From the IMG/VR virus record IMGVR_UViG_2728369553_000011: a stretch of 13,332 nucleotides of DNA; one strand, given 5' to 3'. A model generated the notes under the pieces. It had not been told where the DNA came from. It did not search any database and saw nothing but the letters and a program-made list of their open reading frames with translations. Numbering within the stretch: the first letter of the stretch is position 1; each line of letters starts with the position of its first letter. The stretch is from a virus (lineage: Duplodnaviria > Heunggongvirae > Uroviricota > Caudoviricetes). Shown piece by piece: positions 2,781 through 7,568 of the stretch. Position numbers and translations under genes: made by a program.

Positions 2781-3549
2781 TTACTTCGCAATTCCTGGCT
2801 GGACGACATTCGGACGCCAGCTCTCCCAGTTAAAATTCACCCATCGCCCGCCGTTCATGGTCATGCGATCCATAATCCTCTCGCCGAGCAATGTTTTCAT
2901 GGCCTCATAATTCAGGTTTGTCAGCATCCCCACGCTGCGCATCGACGCTGTCCGGCGATCAACAATCTGGTGCAGCACCACCTGCTCGTTTTTTGTCTCG
3001 CGCTGAATGCCAATTTCATCAAGAACCAGCAGATCCACTTGGCACAGTTCCCGCAAAAATTTTTCGCCTGATTGCCCGTCGTCATAGCTGGCGTGTAGGG
3101 CACTCATGACATCAGCCACGGTAACCACAATCACTGTCTGGCCATCTTTCAGCAGGCGATTCCCGATAGCCGCCGCCAGATGGTTTTTTCCGGTACCAGG
3201 TTTTCCGCTGAACGCAAAATTTGTACACCCGGTCATCAGTTCATCAGCGATGGATTTCGCCTGACTCAACGCGTATCGCTGCCCTTCGTTCTGCACCTGG
3301 TAANNNNNNNNNNNNNNNNNNNNNNNNNNNNNNNNNNNCGAAAACGAGCATTTGCGGTGCAATGGCTGGATGCCAGAGCGATTCAGAATTTTTTCCACCC
3401 GCAACTGACGATTCTGACGGTTGATCTCCTCACAACGTTTCTGGCCTTCGGAAAGTTGCCACTCGCGCCACTCCGCTACCGTTTTGAATGGGGCGGTTAC
3501 ATGTGGCGGGGCCAGTCTGCGGATACGTTCAAGAATGCCNNNNNNNNNN
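2781..3549 (-). CDS. ydaV: DnaC/IstB-like AAA+ helicase loader (phage P-like replication protein), interrupted by N-masked gaps; true start falls in or next to the 10-N run
   Basis: Walker [18 protein letters not shown] and Walker B LLVLDEIG. Frame stays open in the same phase on both sides of the 35-N run. Length from the 10-N run to the stop is about 252-256 aa, close to the recalled 248-aa YdaV. Stop TAA at 2781-2783. Confidence 0.75.
3304..3338. other. Run of 35 N (masked or unsequenced bases) inside the DnaC-like gene
   Basis: Literal N characters. The frame is open and in phase on both sides. Confidence 0.99.
3540..3549. other. Run of 10 N at the ydaU-like stop / ydaV-like start junction
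   Basis: Literal N characters directly next to the TAA of the ydaU-like gene (3550-3552). Confidence 0.99.
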
Positions 3550-4338
3550 TTACCCCCTGAAGCCTGGCGGGATCGCACTATCCGGTAACGAGACGGTGTT
3601 AACCTGTCGGAGTAACGTCTCAGGTCGAACACCTTTTGGCGCGAACAAGCCCTGGTATTCATTGGCGATGCTGTGTCGAATCACCTGCTCAGGTGAAAAA
3701 CCCTGCTGGCGGAATTTTTCCAGCTCCCGTATCGCCCCGTTAGCGCCCTGCTCCGTTCGAATCGGTTTTCGCAATGCCTGCCTGAACTGAACCCACTCAT
3801 GCCAGAGTGTTTCCGGCAACCAGTCAGGCAGCTCGATAGCCTCCGGTTCGAATTTTTTAGACGCTCGTTTTTGGCGAGGGGGATTTAGGGGGAGATAAGT
3901 ATTTATATCTTCCTCTTTCTCTTCCTCTGGTAACGCTTTTTGATCCGTTTTTGTAACGCTGGCAGCGTTACCTTTTCGTTTCAGTTCTCGTATTTTTGTT
4001 ACTCTCTCGTTTGTAACCGCCCGTTTTTTAGAGCTTTTCCCGTTATGGCGCTCAAAGTTAGGAAGCGACAACACACCATTAGTTTCGACCAGCCATCCAA
4101 CCTGAATTAACGCATCAGCAAAACCAGCCATAAAAGTGATGCGATCTATTGCACTTTTTGTAACGCCGCGAGCGTTACACTCTGCGTTACCGTCTATCAT
4201 TTGTTGATCCGCCCATGCCCAGAAGCGAATGACTTTCCCTAATGCGGCATCTGGATCAATATTCAGAATCTCAGCAAGCCTGAATATTTCCGGCTTATCC
4301 GGCGTAATAACTTCGAGCTTTATCCAGTTTGAAGCCAT
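3550..4338 (-). CDS. ydaU: YdaU-like replication initiation / replisome organiser protein (lambda O analogue by position), 262 aa
   Basis: ATG at 4338 with AAGGTGA Shine-Dalgarno 6 nt upstream; stop TAA at 3550-3552. Acidic/basic linker (EEEKEEDINTYLPLNPPRQKRASKK). Sits between the cII-like ydaT and the DnaC-like loader. Contains palindromic repeats in its coding sequence. Confidence 0.7.
   Translation of the reverse strand: MASNWIKLEVITPDKPEIFRLAEILNIDPDAALGKVIRFWAWADQQMIDGNAECNARGVTKSAIDRITFMAGFADALIQVGWLVETNGVLSLPNFERHNGKSSKKRAVTNERVTKIRELKRKGNAASVTKTDQKALPEEEKEEDINTYLPLNPPRQKRASKKFEPEAIELPDWLPETLWHEWVQFRQALRKPIRTEQGANGAIRELEKFRQQGFSPEQVIRHSIANEYQGLFAPKGVRPETLLRQVNTVSLPDSAIPPGFRG
3953..3971. 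repeat. 19-bp palindrome GTAACGCT-GGC-AGCGTTAC, copy 1, inside the ydaU-like coding sequence
   Basis: Perfect 8-bp inverted arms read directly. Flanked by a GGTAACGCT half-site (3929-3937) and CGTTTTTGTAAC-like direct repeats up to about 4030. Confidence 0.75.
4160..4178. repeat. 19-bp palindrome GTAACGCC-GCG-AGCGTTAC, copy 2 (one arm mismatch), inside the ydaU-like coding sequence; extra GCGTTAC half-site at 4184-4190
   Basis: Read directly from sequence. Confidence 0.7.
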
Positions 4339-4415: not shown

Positions 4416-4838
4416 TCAATGCACTACGACAGAATCGCTAGGAGAACCGCCGCCGCTGAAATGTGCTTTACGGTAAACGGCCTGGACTGCATCATCATGC
4501 GCATCAATTGCCGTACTCAGTGCATCCTGTGCCGCCAGTAATGCACGGCGTTCCAGGGTATCGAAGATGCAGAGTCGGTGACGCAGCTCGCGAGGAAGAA
4601 TTGCCAGAACCGCAGGGATCAGTTTCTGAATTTTTTCCCTTTGCGCATTCGTTTCACCTTTCAACCAACGATGATAGATATTCTGCTGATTGTTCCAGTC
4701 CTTGCCTGGTACCAGGGGCAATTCGCCGCCCCCCTGGCGCAGATATTCTTCAGTAATTGCGTTAGCGACCCACGCCTGCCCTTTTTCGGCTGCCAGGGCT
4801 AACAACACTGATTCGATGTGCTCATGCTTGATTTTCAT
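4416..4838 (-). CDS. ydaT: YdaT, CII-like regulator/toxic protein of the Rac immunity region, 140 aa
   Basis: 140-aa ORF MKIKHEHIESVLLALAAEKGQAWV... Its ATG (4838-4836) overlaps the ydaS TGA (ATGA-type coupling). Length and sequence match recalled K-12 YdaT. Confidence 0.8.
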   Translation of the reverse strand: MKIKHEHIESVLLALAAEKGQAWVANAITEEYLRQGGGELPLVPGKDWNNQQNIYHRWLKGETNAQREKIQKLIPAVLAILPRELRHRLCIFDTLERRALLAAQDALSTAIDAHDDAVQAVYRKAHFSGGGSPSDSVVVH

Positions 4839-5089
4839 GAATCAACTCCCATCAGCTTTTTCGTAGTAGTTTTATTTCTGCCAATAGTTAAAATTGCATC
4901 GGCAGAAAATAATCCGTTTGATGCATGAGCGATTTTTTCAGCGTAATTTGTTTCGCCGGTATATTCTGTGCGAGGCAATTTTCCGTTATCCATCCATTTG
5001 TAGATTGCTCTTTGGCTGACACCACAAACGTCGGCCACAACAGAAACGCGAACAGTTTTGATTACATCTTCAAGTGTTTTCTGGTTCAT
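4835..5089 (-). CDS. ydaS: YdaS, Cro-like XRE-family HTH protein (84 aa from ATG 5089; the ORF is open up to ATG 5161)
   Basis: HTH segment VADVCGVSQRAIYKWMDNGKLP. ATG 5089 is preceded by GAGGA 4 nt upstream. Divergent from racR. Start choice is uncertain. Confidence 0.75.
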   Translation of the reverse strand: MNQKTLEDVIKTVRVSVVADVCGVSQRAIYKWMDNGKLPRTEYTGETNYAEKIAHASNGLFSADAILTIGRNKTTTKKLMGVDS

Positions 5090-5113
5090 ATCATCCTCAC
5101 AATGTGAACTTTG

Positions 5114-5144
5114 AGTACATGCCATAACAGAACTGACAGTACAT
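5114..5144. promoter_or_regulatory. Two direct copies of AGTACAT (5114-5120 and 5138-5144), 24 bp apart, in the racR/ydaS divergent region; candidate repressor operator half-sites
   Basis: Seen in sequence. The second copy overlaps the putative racR -35 element. Confidence 0.3.
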
Positions 5145-5161
5145 TCAAGAGCGAATATCAT
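5133..5161 (+). promoter_or_regulatory. Candidate sigma70 promoter for racR: -35 CTGACA (5133-5138), 17-bp spacer, -10 TATCAT (5156-5161); predicts a leaderless or near-leaderless racR mRNA, as for lambda cI from PRM
   Basis: Hexamers read directly from the sequence. racR ATG at 5169 with no SD. Confidence 0.35.
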
Positions 5162-5168
5162 TGAACTT

Positions 5169-5588
5169 ATGGTTCATGAAGATAAAGCGCGTAAAGAGTT
5201 CGCCAGTAGGCTTGCGCTAGCCTGTGAAAACGCTGGTTATGAACAACATGGAAGGCAGGCAGAAATTGCCCGTCGAATGAAATTAACACCAAAAGCGGTT
5301 AGCAAATGGTTTAATGGTGAAACAATTCCTCGCCGAGAGAAATTAAGGGAATTAGCAACACTCATTGGAACAACACCAACCTATCTTTTGGGAGAGGATA
5401 CAGAAGAAAGTGGACAGATACGTTTCTATCAGGAGTTAAATCCAAGACAAAAAATCATCATTGACCTTCTGGACGAGCTCCCTGACAGTGAGACAGATGA
5501 ACTTTTAAAAACTCTTGAGGAGAAAAAACAGAAGTACAATGCAATTTACGAAGAGTTAGCACGAAAGAAAAAACAAAAAGCCTCTTAA
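5169..5588 (+). CDS. racR: RacR, CI-like prophage repressor (139 aa as read here)
   Basis: ORF MVHEDKARKEFASRLALACENAGYEQHGRQAEIARRMKLTPKAVSKWFNGE with an HTH segment. Divergent to ydaS/ydaT. No Shine-Dalgarno upstream, and a -10-like TATCAT ends 7 nt before the ATG. Confidence 0.8.
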   Translation: MVHEDKARKEFASRLALACENAGYEQHGRQAEIARRMKLTPKAVSKWFNGETIPRREKLRELATLIGTTPTYLLGEDTEESGQIRFYQELNPRQKIIIDLLDELPDSETDELLKTLEEKKQKYNAIYEELARKKKQKAS

Positions 5589-5663
5589 ATCAGCATAAAT
5601 CCGGTAGCGTCCCCCTCCGGGTTTGTGCTTCACTTTATCCCGTCTCATTTTTTTATACATAAA

Positions 5664-5704
5664 ATGTACTTAAAGTACTTTACAATGATGAACACAAAGT
5701 ACAT
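5664..5704. promoter_or_regulatory. Cluster of GTAC-core repeats downstream of racR: ATGTACT (5664-5670), perfect palindrome AAGTACTT (5673-5680), AGTACAT (5698-5704); candidate second operator and ydaG promoter region
   Basis: Seen in sequence. Same 7-mer family as at 5114-5144. AT-rich context with TTTACA and TTATAT hexamers nearby. Confidence 0.3.
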
Positions 5705-5875
5705 TATATACCTACCAACCCACCCCGCCCCACAGAACGCAGGGCAATACTTCGAGTTACCAGGCAGTGGTAAGGGGTTAAGTAGCCAGCCCGAGGCGTA
5801 TGAACATGACGGCGGGATTCAAATTTTGCAGTGCAGCAGTTAGTTCCGCCACCCGGCGTTAAGGGGAGAGATAAG

Positions 5876-6010
5876 ATGGTGCATTACGAAGTAGTTCAGT
5901 ATTTGATGGATTGTTGCGGTATCACTTACAACCAGGCTGTGCAGGCTTTACGCAGCAACGACTGGGATCTCTGGCAGGCAGAAGTCGCTATACGTAGCAA
6001 CAAGATGTGA
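5876..6010 (+). CDS. ydaG: YdaG, small Rac prophage protein (44 aa)
   Basis: ATG 5876 preceded by a strong SD AAGGGGAGAG. Translation MVHYEVVQYLMDCCGITYNQAVQALRSNDWDLWQAEVAIRSNKM. Below the ORF-track length cutoff. Confidence 0.65.
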   Translation: MVHYEVVQYLMDCCGITYNQAVQALRSNDWDLWQAEVAIRSNKM

Positions 6011-6020
6011 GATTCGCAAA

Positions 6021-6176
6021 ATGCAAAAAATCGACCTCGGCAACAACGAATCCCTGGTGTGCGGCGTGTTCCCCAACCAGGATGGAACGTTCACTGCCAT
6101 GACGTATACCAAAAGCAAAACATTTAAAACCGAAACTGGTGCGCGCCGATGGTTGGAGAAGCACACAGTAAGCTAA
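6021..6176 (+). CDS. ydaF: YdaF, small Rac prophage protein (51 aa)
   Basis: ATG 6021, 10 nt after the ydaG stop. Translation MQKIDLGNNESLVCGVFPNQDGTFTAMTYTKSKTFKTETGARRWLEKHTVS. Its 3' end overlaps the convergent sieB 3' end by 4 nt. Confidence 0.65.
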   Translation: MQKIDLGNNESLVCGVFPNQDGTFTAMTYTKSKTFKTETGARRWLEKHTVS

Positions 6177-6661
6177 CGATTAAAACGTCTACTCCTGCTG
6201 TTCCAGAATAACTTCATAAAATGGGAGTATTTTTCGGTGACGAGATAATAAGAACAGTTTGCGCTATCACTCTGATGTTGAATGATGCCCTTCCGTTCTA
6301 ATTTTTTCATAACCGGGTTACGGCAAGGAGAAGTGATAATAAGATTTCCTGTTTTAAGGAAATCTTTAAATACAGCGATTTCTTTCTCAGATAAACGAAG
6401 CAATACTCGTTGCTCTGGTAGTAATGAATAATGCTTTTGAATATGTGCTCGCAATCTTGAGAAGGAAATGGCGACCACGAAAGAAAAGGCAAAAACGATA
6501 ATCTGAAAGAGCCAAGGTATTTCAGTATAAGCATTGAATGCGACAGTAAACTCTTTCGGTATCAGCCAGAGAGTGAGACCAAAAATGATAATCGTATACA
6601 TAAGTCTTTCGAGTGGCTCGTTAGCAAAAAGTTTCAACAATGGAGTAAATACATCCAACAT
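6173..6661 (-). CDS. sieB: SieB, superinfection exclusion / abortive-infection membrane protein (162 aa)
   Basis: Track ORF 6173..6784; the internal ATG at 6661 (MLDVFTPLLKLFANEPLERLMYTIIIFGLTLWLIPKEF...) gives the recalled 162-aa length. Hydrophobic N-terminal half. Confidence 0.8.
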   Translation of the reverse strand: MLDVFTPLLKLFANEPLERLMYTIIIFGLTLWLIPKEFTVAFNAYTEIPWLFQIIVFAFSFVVAISFSRLRAHIQKHYSLLPEQRVLLRLSEKEIAVFKDFLKTGNLIITSPCRNPVMKKLERKGIIQHQSDSANCSYYLVTEKYSHFMKLFWNSRSRRFNR

Positions 6662-7324: not shown

Positions 7325-7494
7325 TGACTAAGAAAATAAAATGTGCTTACCACCTTTGCAAAAAAGACGTTGAAGAAAGCAAAGCTATTGAAAAAATGCT
7401 TCACTTCATGCACGGGATTTTATCAAAAGACGAACCGAGAAAATATTGCAGTGAAGCTTGTGCCGAAAAAGACCAGATGGCACATGAACTTTAA
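7324..7494 (+). CDS. ydaE: YdaE, small Cys-rich (CxxC…CxxxC) Rac prophage protein (56 aa)
   Basis: ATG 7324 in a TGATG overlap with kilR. Translation [56 protein letters not shown]. Below the ORF-track cutoff. Confidence 0.7.
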   Translation: MTKKIKCAYHLCKKDVEESKAIEKMLHFMHGILSKDEPRKYCSEACAEKDQMAHEL

Positions 7495-7568
7495 TTAATT
7501 GACTATTCGAAACTGAATTTATGCCAGAAATGGCAGGTATTCGCTCAACCTTAATTAAGGAGAAAAAC

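Follow-up and report, generated by a model that had tools for sequence, protein, structure and literature searches.

The stretch of DNA considered here, IMG/VR record IMGVR_UViG_2728369553_000011 (13,332 nucleotides in full, hereafter the window), matches a Rac-like defective prophage of Escherichia coli ECONIH4 at 100% identity. The comparisons presented below indicate that its segment 4845-5717, with operators, a repressor gene and promoters, is very probably an exchangeable immunity cassette of the HK022 type, and that the switch it encodes probably follows a lambda-like bistable design with right (OR) and left (OL) operators and a leaderless repressor mRNA. The initial annotation of the region had correctly described two genes diverging from a short spacer (the minus-strand gene starting at 5089 and the plus-strand gene at 5169, with 79 bp between them) and had named them racR and ydaS after the Rac prophage of E. 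coli K-12. The names cannot be kept: BLASTP comparisons of the 139-aa repressor with the 158-aa RacR and of the 84-aa Cro-like protein with the 98-aa YdaS gave only 12/33 and 6/18 identities, respectively, within the helix-turn-helix (HTH).

Cassette boundaries, relationship to HK022 and operator sites

Pairwise alignment showed near-identity to K-12 Rac up to about 4844, shortly beyond the ydaT start, and again from about 5718, with unrelated sequence in between; K-12 DNA covers 31% of the interval 4800-6050, in the flanks only, and identity is about 99% where the two align, at the end of ydaT and from the ydaG leader onward. Because the K-12 homology breaks off on both sides, the cro-like gene, the spacer, the repressor gene and the repeats downstream of it were read as a swapped immunity cassette. 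The left edge of the cassette carries a YdaT-box, TTGATTTTCATGAATCAA (4828-4845), which spans the ydaT start codon and is the window's only exact match to TTGATT-N6-AATCAA, the published recognition site of YdaT (PMC9986795, PMC11879457). The right edge of the non-homologous segment lies approximately at the predicted +1 of the left promoter (PL), and K-12 homology resumes with a conserved non-coding leader of the PL transcript (5718-5875, plus strand, ~160 nt), which immediately follows the predicted PL start and marks the right cassette boundary. Near-invariant blocks of this leader are present in seven heteroimmune phages and prophages, namely K-12 Rac, Tritos, 606R7, the Evi/CP-933P type, 640R1, 204576 and pPE4. 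A search with 4800-6050 as the query gave matches in 3,801 of 5,426 E. coli genomes, most of the best matches extending little beyond the leader; the cassette was found in approximately 1,000 of the 5,426 complete genomes.

The 79-bp spacer between the cro-like and repressor genes (5090-5168) aligns without gaps to the HK022 spacer in record X16093, which annotates three oR sites, two oL sites, pR and pL, and the region preceding the leader aligns to HK022 oL/pL. The Cro-like protein shares 45 of 73 residues with HK022 Cro (62%, E 1e-34), and the N-terminal domain of the repressor shares 46 of 99 with HK022 CI (residues 3-99; 46%, E 9e-32), the HTH being nearly identical (TPKAVSKWFNGE in the window's repressor vs TPKAISKWFNGE in HK022 CI); homology of the N-terminal domain was also found to the CI proteins of Klebsiella phages (63%) and 933W-type phages (51%). 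A translated search of phage genomes revealed an identical repressor (100%) in phages vB_EcoS-673R7, -613R10 and -666R9, the deposited genomes of phages with this 139-aa protein being 38-46 kb, and a 99% match in phage Tritos, where it is annotated as 'CI repressor'. An O157:H7 strain has a cassette 99.4% identical to this one. The scan of genome contigs for relatives of the repressor yielded one Shigella locus only, and further diversity was taken from a protein search and contig look-ups. The searchable literature appears to contain no experimental study of this particular cassette.

The operator unit, as read from the sites aligned to HK022, is a 17-bp dyad, ATGWACT-N3-AGTWCAT. To avoid circularity, a consensus derived from the window was not relied on, and the search was made with a matrix built from the five annotated HK022 operators (X16093) only, independent of the window. 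The five predicted operators are the window's top five matches (13.6-20.5 bits), the sixth-best reaching 9.7 bits; dinucleotide-preserving shuffles contained on average 0.1 sites of at least 13.6 bits (maximum 2), with a mean top score of 10.8 bits. OR1 (GTGAACTTTGAGTACAT, 5104-5120, 16.7 bits; aligned to HK022 oR at X16093 3057-3071) lies just downstream of the -10 element of the right promoter (PR), over the predicted PR start. OR2 (CAGAACTGACAGTACAT, 5128-5144, 14.5 bits; HK022 oR 3033-3047) occupies the PR spacer and includes the -35 element of the predicted promoter for repressor maintenance (PRM). OR3 (TTGAACTTATGGTTCAT, 5161-5177; HK022 oR 3000-3014) has the window's top score, 20.5 bits, and includes the ATG of the repressor gene at position 9 of the dyad, its HK022 counterpart overlapping the cI start at 3007. 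Beyond the repressor gene, OL2 (ATGTACTTAAAGTACTT, 5664-5680, 18.3 bits; HK022 oL 2225-2239) abuts and overlaps the -35 element of PL, and OL1 (ATGAACACAAAGTACAT, 5688-5704, 13.6 bits; HK022 oL 2201-2215) is located within the PL spacer, overlapping the PL -10 element. At the window positions equivalent to HK022 OL3 and OFR, the matrix found nothing above approximately 6 bits, whereas in HK022 itself it recovers both sites (11.3 and 18.1 bits, respectively). A candidate at 7484-7500 was rejected, its 9.7 bits being under the mean shuffle maximum.

These results bear directly on the repeats pointed out in the initial annotation. The heptamer AGTACAT is present at 5114, 5138 and 5698 and its reverse complement ATGTACT at 5664, with no other copies on either strand of the 13.3-kb window, and AAGTACTT is present at 5673-5680; two copies of AGTACAT in the spacer and members of the same family downstream of the repressor gene, 76-116 nt past its stop codon, were therefore located accurately. 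The GTAC-core heptamers are real half-sites, but the predicted binding unit is the 17-bp dyad, and its other half is usually GAAC; the left half-sites had escaped the initial annotation because they are mostly of this form. The three downstream elements are likewise present, but as halves of two dyads and not as three sites. In the spacer, the half-sites of OR1 and OR2 had been recognised, but OR3 over the start codon had been missed and the position of the PRM -35 within OR2 had gone unseen. The suggestion of two operator clusters in a lambda-like OR/OL arrangement is borne out by the annotated HK022 operators and by a geometry that is invariant across six lineages.

The lineages compared were the window, the Shigella locus, phage Tritos, a metagenome contig (repressor 89% identical), Salmonella loci (62-65%) and HK022. 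In 60 of 60 half-sites, positions 3-6 read G-W-A-C, in contrast to the variable central N3 and inter-operator spacers; the spacing is constant, with 24 bp for OR1-OR2, 33 bp for OR2-OR3 and 24 bp for OL2-OL1. In each of the five tabulated lineages the ATG occupies position 9 of OR3, and the HK022 cI start also falls within OR3. In the Salmonella loci the OL pair is approximately 1.3 kb from OR3, as opposed to 0.5 kb otherwise, and genes for a HigB-family toxin and an HTH antitoxin-like protein lie between the short repressor and the OL pair (L006 3053-3720, L007 3088-3755), an insertion resembling rexAB in lambda and paaA2-parE2 in CP-933P. Since the OL pair stays with the repressor despite the inserted toxin-antitoxin genes, OL goes with the repressor and not with a fixed distance. 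Heteroimmune relatives (606R7, the Evi/CP-933P type, 640R1 and pPE4) have, when inspected by eye, type-specific repeats of their own at both operator positions; an exact shared-word matrix comparing spacers with pre-leader regions of the heteroimmune loci did not separate matched from mismatched pairs.

A further pattern was noted at the operators. The left half of OL2 is overlapped by a perfect palindrome, TACAT-AAA-ATGTA (5656-5668), which does not keep the register of the 17-bp dyads and is partly conserved in HK022 (ATAAAATGTACT); it could be a product of chance in AT-rich DNA or an extra site. The search for LexA boxes (CTGT-N8-ACAG, at most one mismatch) gave seven matches against 4.2 expected, none of them at the switch, and yielded no evidence of SOS control.

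Promoters, transcripts and genomic context

The consensus promoter scan covered 4800-6050, and its best sigma-70-like site is CTGACA-17-TATCAT, the predicted PRM, which matches the consensus at 10 of 12 positions (-35 at 5133-5138 and -10 at 5156-5161, plus strand). As the initial annotation stated, the -10 ends 7 nt before the ATG at 5169, and the intervening TTGAACT has no Shine-Dalgarno (SD) sequence. At exactly the corresponding positions HK022 has CTGATA-17-TATAGT and the Salmonella loci have CTGATA-17-TATAAT, and the distance from the -10 to the ATG is always 7 nt in the window, HK022 and the Salmonella relatives. The repressor mRNA is most likely leaderless, starting at the A of the AUG, since there is no SD sequence, OR3 lies over the start, the -10 has the appropriate geometry and leaderless precedents exist in K-12 racR and in paaR2; the same deduction, made initially from the promoter geometry, is backed by the annotated HK022 promoters and by the constancy of that geometry across lineages. 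For K-12 racR a leaderless transcript has been mapped, PracR3 being the strongest promoter and the ATG lying inside O3 (PMC9638921), and for CP-933P paaR2 a leaderless mRNA was demonstrated by 5' RACE and N-terminal sequencing, OL/PL also being present (PMC8630535).

The predicted PR reads leftward (minus strand). Its -35 element TTGAAT (5148-5143) aligns to the -35 TTGACT of the annotated HK022 pR (TTGACT-16-CATAAT), and its -10 element at 5119-5126, read either as TATGGC (5126-5121) after 16 bp of spacer or as TGGCAT after 18 bp, takes the position of the HK022 CATAAT. Of the two alleles at 5123, the C found here (GCCATAA) is carried by 38 complete E. coli genomes and the T (GCTATAA, giving TATAGC or TAGCAT) by 963. 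The predicted PL, returned by the promoter scan on the plus strand (5679-5707), consists of TTTACA (5679-5684), a 17-bp spacer and CATTAT (5702-5707), corresponds hexamer for hexamer to the annotated HK022 pL (TTTACA-17-CATCAT) and reads towards ydaG, ydaF, kilR and recET. Between the repressor stop codon and OL2 there is a hairpin and then UUCACUUUAU (5592-5629, plus strand; 13-bp stem, -19.4 kcal/mol, z = -4.8); none of 200 shuffles was equally stable, and the stem is conserved in Tritos. The hairpin with its U-rich stretch could serve as the terminator for the repressor transcript, although it failed a strict terminator scan.

The leader of the PL transcript was also considered as a structured, put-like RNA, and this candidate was rejected (minimum free energy z = -0.58, unfavourable RNAalifold covariation term). 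An Rfam scan of 4800-6300 (E <= 1) gave no matches, and no convincing alignment was obtained between the leader and the HK022 region downstream of pL (putL). The 5' end of the leader is C-rich and G-poor (CCAACCCACCCCGCCCCACAGAAC) and resembles a Rho-utilisation site.

The surrounding genes belong to a Rac-like backbone. The cro-like gene (84 aa; 4835-5089, minus strand; RefSeq CDS WP_001072342) has the SD sequence GAGGA at 5098-5094 and is followed leftward by ydaT (4838-4416, minus strand; RefSeq annotation of the identical locus), a hypothetical gene in the ydaU position, ydaV, DUF1627 and DUF977 genes, and then a host gene for a BCCT transporter. Rightward from the repressor gene lie ydaG (5876-6010), ydaF, sieB, kilR, ydaE, racC, recE, recT, ralR, rcbA and xisR; comparison of the RefSeq annotation with K-12 showed ydaT, ydaG, ydaF, sieB, kilR, racC, recET, ralR and xisR in the K-12 Rac order. 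No lysis or structural genes are annotated by RefSeq in the locus, so the element is a prophage remnant. The prophage stops abruptly after the DUF977 gene, beside the host BCCT-family transporter gene, the late-gene half being missing, and this cryptic remnant retains kilR, ydaT and recET. Runs of N (35 bases at 3304-3338 and 10 bases at 3540-3549) mark masked sequence near the DUF1627 and ydaV-like genes.

The short repressor and alternative explanations

The repressor gene (5169-5588, plus strand; stop codon 5586-5588) encodes a protein of 139 aa in which only the Pfam families HTH_3 and HTH_31 reach their own cut-offs, no S24 peptidase family being matched. Homology to the S24-containing relatives runs through the hinge to IDLLD (residue 102); in the alignment, the Ala-Gly cleavage motif SAGPG, the Ser motif GDSM and the Lys motif VKRL are gone, and the place of the S24 domain is taken by approximately 37 residues that are conserved among short homologs. 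The latter are full-length at 62-89% identity, with L113-K120, Y123 and Y127 of the tail invariant. The AlphaFold model (mean predicted local distance difference test score 83) contains a five-helix HTH domain followed by helices 81-89 and 92-103 and a long helix 106-138. A sequence search of the PDB found only the N-terminal domain of P22 C2 (E 0.006). In the LexA/CI family, RecA-stimulated self-cleavage needs an Ala-Gly site and a Ser/Lys catalytic domain; as both are absent here, it cannot be the route of induction. It is suggested, tentatively, that the E. coli lineage represented by approximately 1,000 of 5,426 genomes possesses a repressor of HK022 specificity in which a short helical tail replaces the RecA-cleavable, cooperativity-bearing C-terminal domain.

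Four other explanations of the region were weighed against the HK022-type cassette. A K-12-type switch, with RacR acting on the GTAC repeats to hold down the toxic ydaS and ydaT, would suit the Rac-like backbone, the K-12 gene order, the nearly identical flanks and the essentiality of RacR in K-12 (PMC5700373, PMC5700377). It does not suit the low identity of both proteins to their K-12 namesakes or the restriction of K-12 DNA to the flanks, and the footprinted RacR operator consensus is (T/A)TAGGC-n3-GCCTA(T/A) (PMC9638921): TAGGC-n3-GCCTA is absent from both operator clusters, with matches in the window at chance level, and present at both positions in K-12. The RacR/YdaS identity is refuted at the level of sequence, leaving such a switch virtually no probability. 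The essentiality of racR, invoked in the initial annotation, carries over by analogy only, through the conserved ydaT and kilR, because K-12 DNA matches the flanks alone. It is hardly more credible that the repeats are an effect of chance or composition in AT-rich promoter DNA with no operator function. The expected count of AGTACAT in the window is 1.0, at least four copies were present anywhere in 5 of 200 shuffles, and promoter-like matches are not enriched; the independent HK022 matrix nevertheless picks exactly these five sites, with a gap of 4 bits to the next. Moreover, the half-site core and the spacing are constant among repressors of 46-99% identity, although centres and spacers vary, and the OL pair tracks the repressor past the inserted toxin-antitoxin pair.

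The possibility that the 139-aa protein is a truncated, non-functional CI and the sites are fossils in a dead prophage has more to be said for it, given the missing S24 domain, the truncation of the prophage with a BCCT gene beside DUF977 and without lysis or structural genes, the rare substitution in the PR -10 and the absence of HK022's OL3 and OFR. It is very unlikely all the same: deposited phage genomes (38-46 kb) encode the identical protein, the short homologs are full-length with a conserved tail, roughly a thousand complete E. coli genomes carry the cassette, the invariant core is intact in all five dyads, and, with the toxic ydaT and kilR both intact, a repressor is still required by the prophage. 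The last alternative concerns the promoter and not the cassette. The repressor might be made mainly from an upstream leadered promoter activated by YdaT, analogous to the promoter for repressor establishment (PRE), CTGACA-17-TATCAT then not being the maintenance promoter. This would make use of the perfect YdaT-box at 4828-4845, in keeping with K-12, where box-bound YdaT activates a reverse promoter in ydaS that drives racR (PMC11879457), and would agree with the burial of the proposed -35 in OR2. It is considered unlikely, since no rightward promoter-like site inside the cro gene, downstream of the YdaT-box, passed the promoter scan, a leadered transcript would still offer an ATG lacking an SD sequence, the window, HK022 and the Salmonella relatives all keep the -10 (TATnnT) at 7 nt from the ATG, and K-12 racR and CP-933P paaR2, whatever establishment promoter they may also have, use leaderless transcripts for maintenance. 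The PRE-like and leaderless routes are not mutually exclusive.

Several observations weigh against the HK022-type reading itself. The two promoter-like matches found do not exceed the 2.5 expected by chance; what weight they have comes from the conservation of their positions with HK022 and the Salmonella relatives, and for the PRM -35, situated inside OR2, that conservation is inseparable from the conservation of the operator. The predicted PR is weak by consensus (TTGAAT-16-TATGGC) and fails the promoter scan, and the rare C at 5123 may be a promoter-down change that cripples PR here, helping to keep cro and ydaT silent. The fold search of the PDB with the repressor model matched the HTH domain only and returned nothing informative for the helical tail. 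Lastly, HK022 CI occupies adjacent operators cooperatively and forms loops between OL and OR (PMC8053113); these properties depend on the C-terminal domain, which is absent here, and may not carry over.

Comparison with known switches, proposed mechanism and significance

The HK022 immunity region is reportedly the subject of Oberto et al. 1989 and Carlson & Little 1993. The window shares with it homologous Cro (62%) and CI DNA-binding domains (46%), a dyad of 15-17 bp (TGWACT-N3-AGTWCA), the 79-bp spacer with three operators at identical positions and the cI start in OR3, and two OL sites 24 bp apart that bracket TTTACA-17-CAT(C/T)AT, with OL and OR about 0.5-0.7 kb from each other. Unlike HK022, the window has a repressor in which a helical tail of ~40 aa stands in for the S24/LexA-like C-terminal domain, lacks OL3, the OFR 'antivirulence' operator and nun, has YdaT in place of cII, a Rac-like backbone and a PR that is weaker by consensus, and its PL leader cannot be aligned with the HK022 region downstream of pL (putL). 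The locus is classified here as an HK022-type cassette with a short repressor; it is neither strict 'HK022 immunity', since the S24 domain and the accessory operators OL3 and OFR are missing, nor RacR/YdaS.

With K-12 Rac the window shares the backbone and gene order, YdaT and the YdaT-box, the PL leader and the downstream genes, as well as a divergent repressor/cro pair, three n3-centred inverted repeats, an ATG in the promoter-proximal operator and a leaderless main transcript (PMC9638921, PMC11879457). The repressor and Cro are, however, non-orthologous, the operator TAGGC-n3-GCCTA is unrelated and the K-12 spacer is 123 bp long vs 79 bp; the two modules are heteroimmune. A pattern search found six RacR-consensus sites in K-12 Rac, four in the racR-ydaS spacer and two before ydaG. 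The latter (4055-4067 and 4080-4092 of the K-12 locus, L002) are 25 bp apart and bracket TTGACA-17-TATAGT facing ydaG; by its arrangement this pair would be an OL/PL for RacR, apparently undescribed. The published RacR footprinting was limited to the racR-ydaS spacer and ydaG is never mentioned (PMC9638921).

The PaaR2/YdaS/YdaT system of CP-933P (E. coli O157:H7) also has a short repressor without S24, for which leaderless translation has been shown experimentally (PMC8630535), and operators both in the paaR2-ydaS spacer and at PL beyond the repressor operon; phage Evi has the same PL leader after PL, together with a repressor start (MQK...) and operator repeats as in PaaR2. CP-933P differs in its repressor family and operator (GTTTAGTAA repeats) and in the toxin-antitoxin pair of its immunity operon, which has no equivalent in the window, a HigB-type pair being found in the window's Salmonella relatives. 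The resemblance to lambda includes a tripartite OR between divergent PR and PRM, OL/PL beyond cI, the 24-bp spacing of cooperative pairs and a leaderless cI. Unlike in lambda, where the PR and PRM starts are separated by 82 bp, the distance here is about 55 bp, OR2 lies near -33 of PRM, over the -35, making lambda-style activation unlikely, there are two OL sites and not three, and no self-cleaving domain is present. OR/OL around the repressor gene, an ATG in the promoter-proximal operator and a leaderless transcript are features already documented in HK022, K-12 Rac, CP-933P or lambda.

From the sequence anatomy, homology, conservation and cassette boundaries observed, we infer the following scheme for binding, transcription starts, the sense of autoregulation and the way in which induction takes place. 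By homology to HK022, the 139-aa CI-like repressor would bind the 17-bp dyads as dimers. Bound at OR1 and OR2, with 24 bp from centre to centre, it would block the leftward PR and keep cro, ydaT and the replication genes silent; at OL1 and OL2, also 24 bp apart, it would block the rightward PL and silence ydaG, ydaF, kilR and recET. The repressor mRNA would be made from CTGACA-17-TATCAT, begin at the A of the AUG and be translated without a leader. With OR3 over the PRM start and OR2 over the -35, negative autoregulation of the repressor is expected, and positive control of the lambda type at OR2 is geometrically unlikely because the OR2 centre is near -33 and not -42. The Cro homolog presumably binds the same dyads and would shut the repressor promoter in lytic development. 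Inactivation of the repressor, if it takes place, would proceed by a mechanism other than cleavage, e.g., through an antirepressor.

These findings do not overturn the current understanding of lambdoid switches. They do point to Rac-like prophages as mosaics with interchangeable immunity cassettes, and the statement 'racR is essential' and the RacR operator data, both obtained for K-12, are not transferable to the approximately one fifth of E. coli genomes that carry this cassette, for which a map of operators and promoters is now available. The near-identity of the recognition-helix residues and of the operators predicts cross-immunity with HK022-type phages. If the tail-bearing repressor does have HK022 specificity, it would provide an SOS-insensitive immunity against phages of HK022 immunity, the switch would be run by pure negative autoregulation, with OR2 over the PRM -35, and would need a separate route of induction, and the rare PR -10 substitution would further lock the lytic promoter in this strain. 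The cassette is thus a natural experiment with a repressor of HK022 specificity that lacks the S24 domain, and it could show how cooperativity, looping and induction proceed without that domain.

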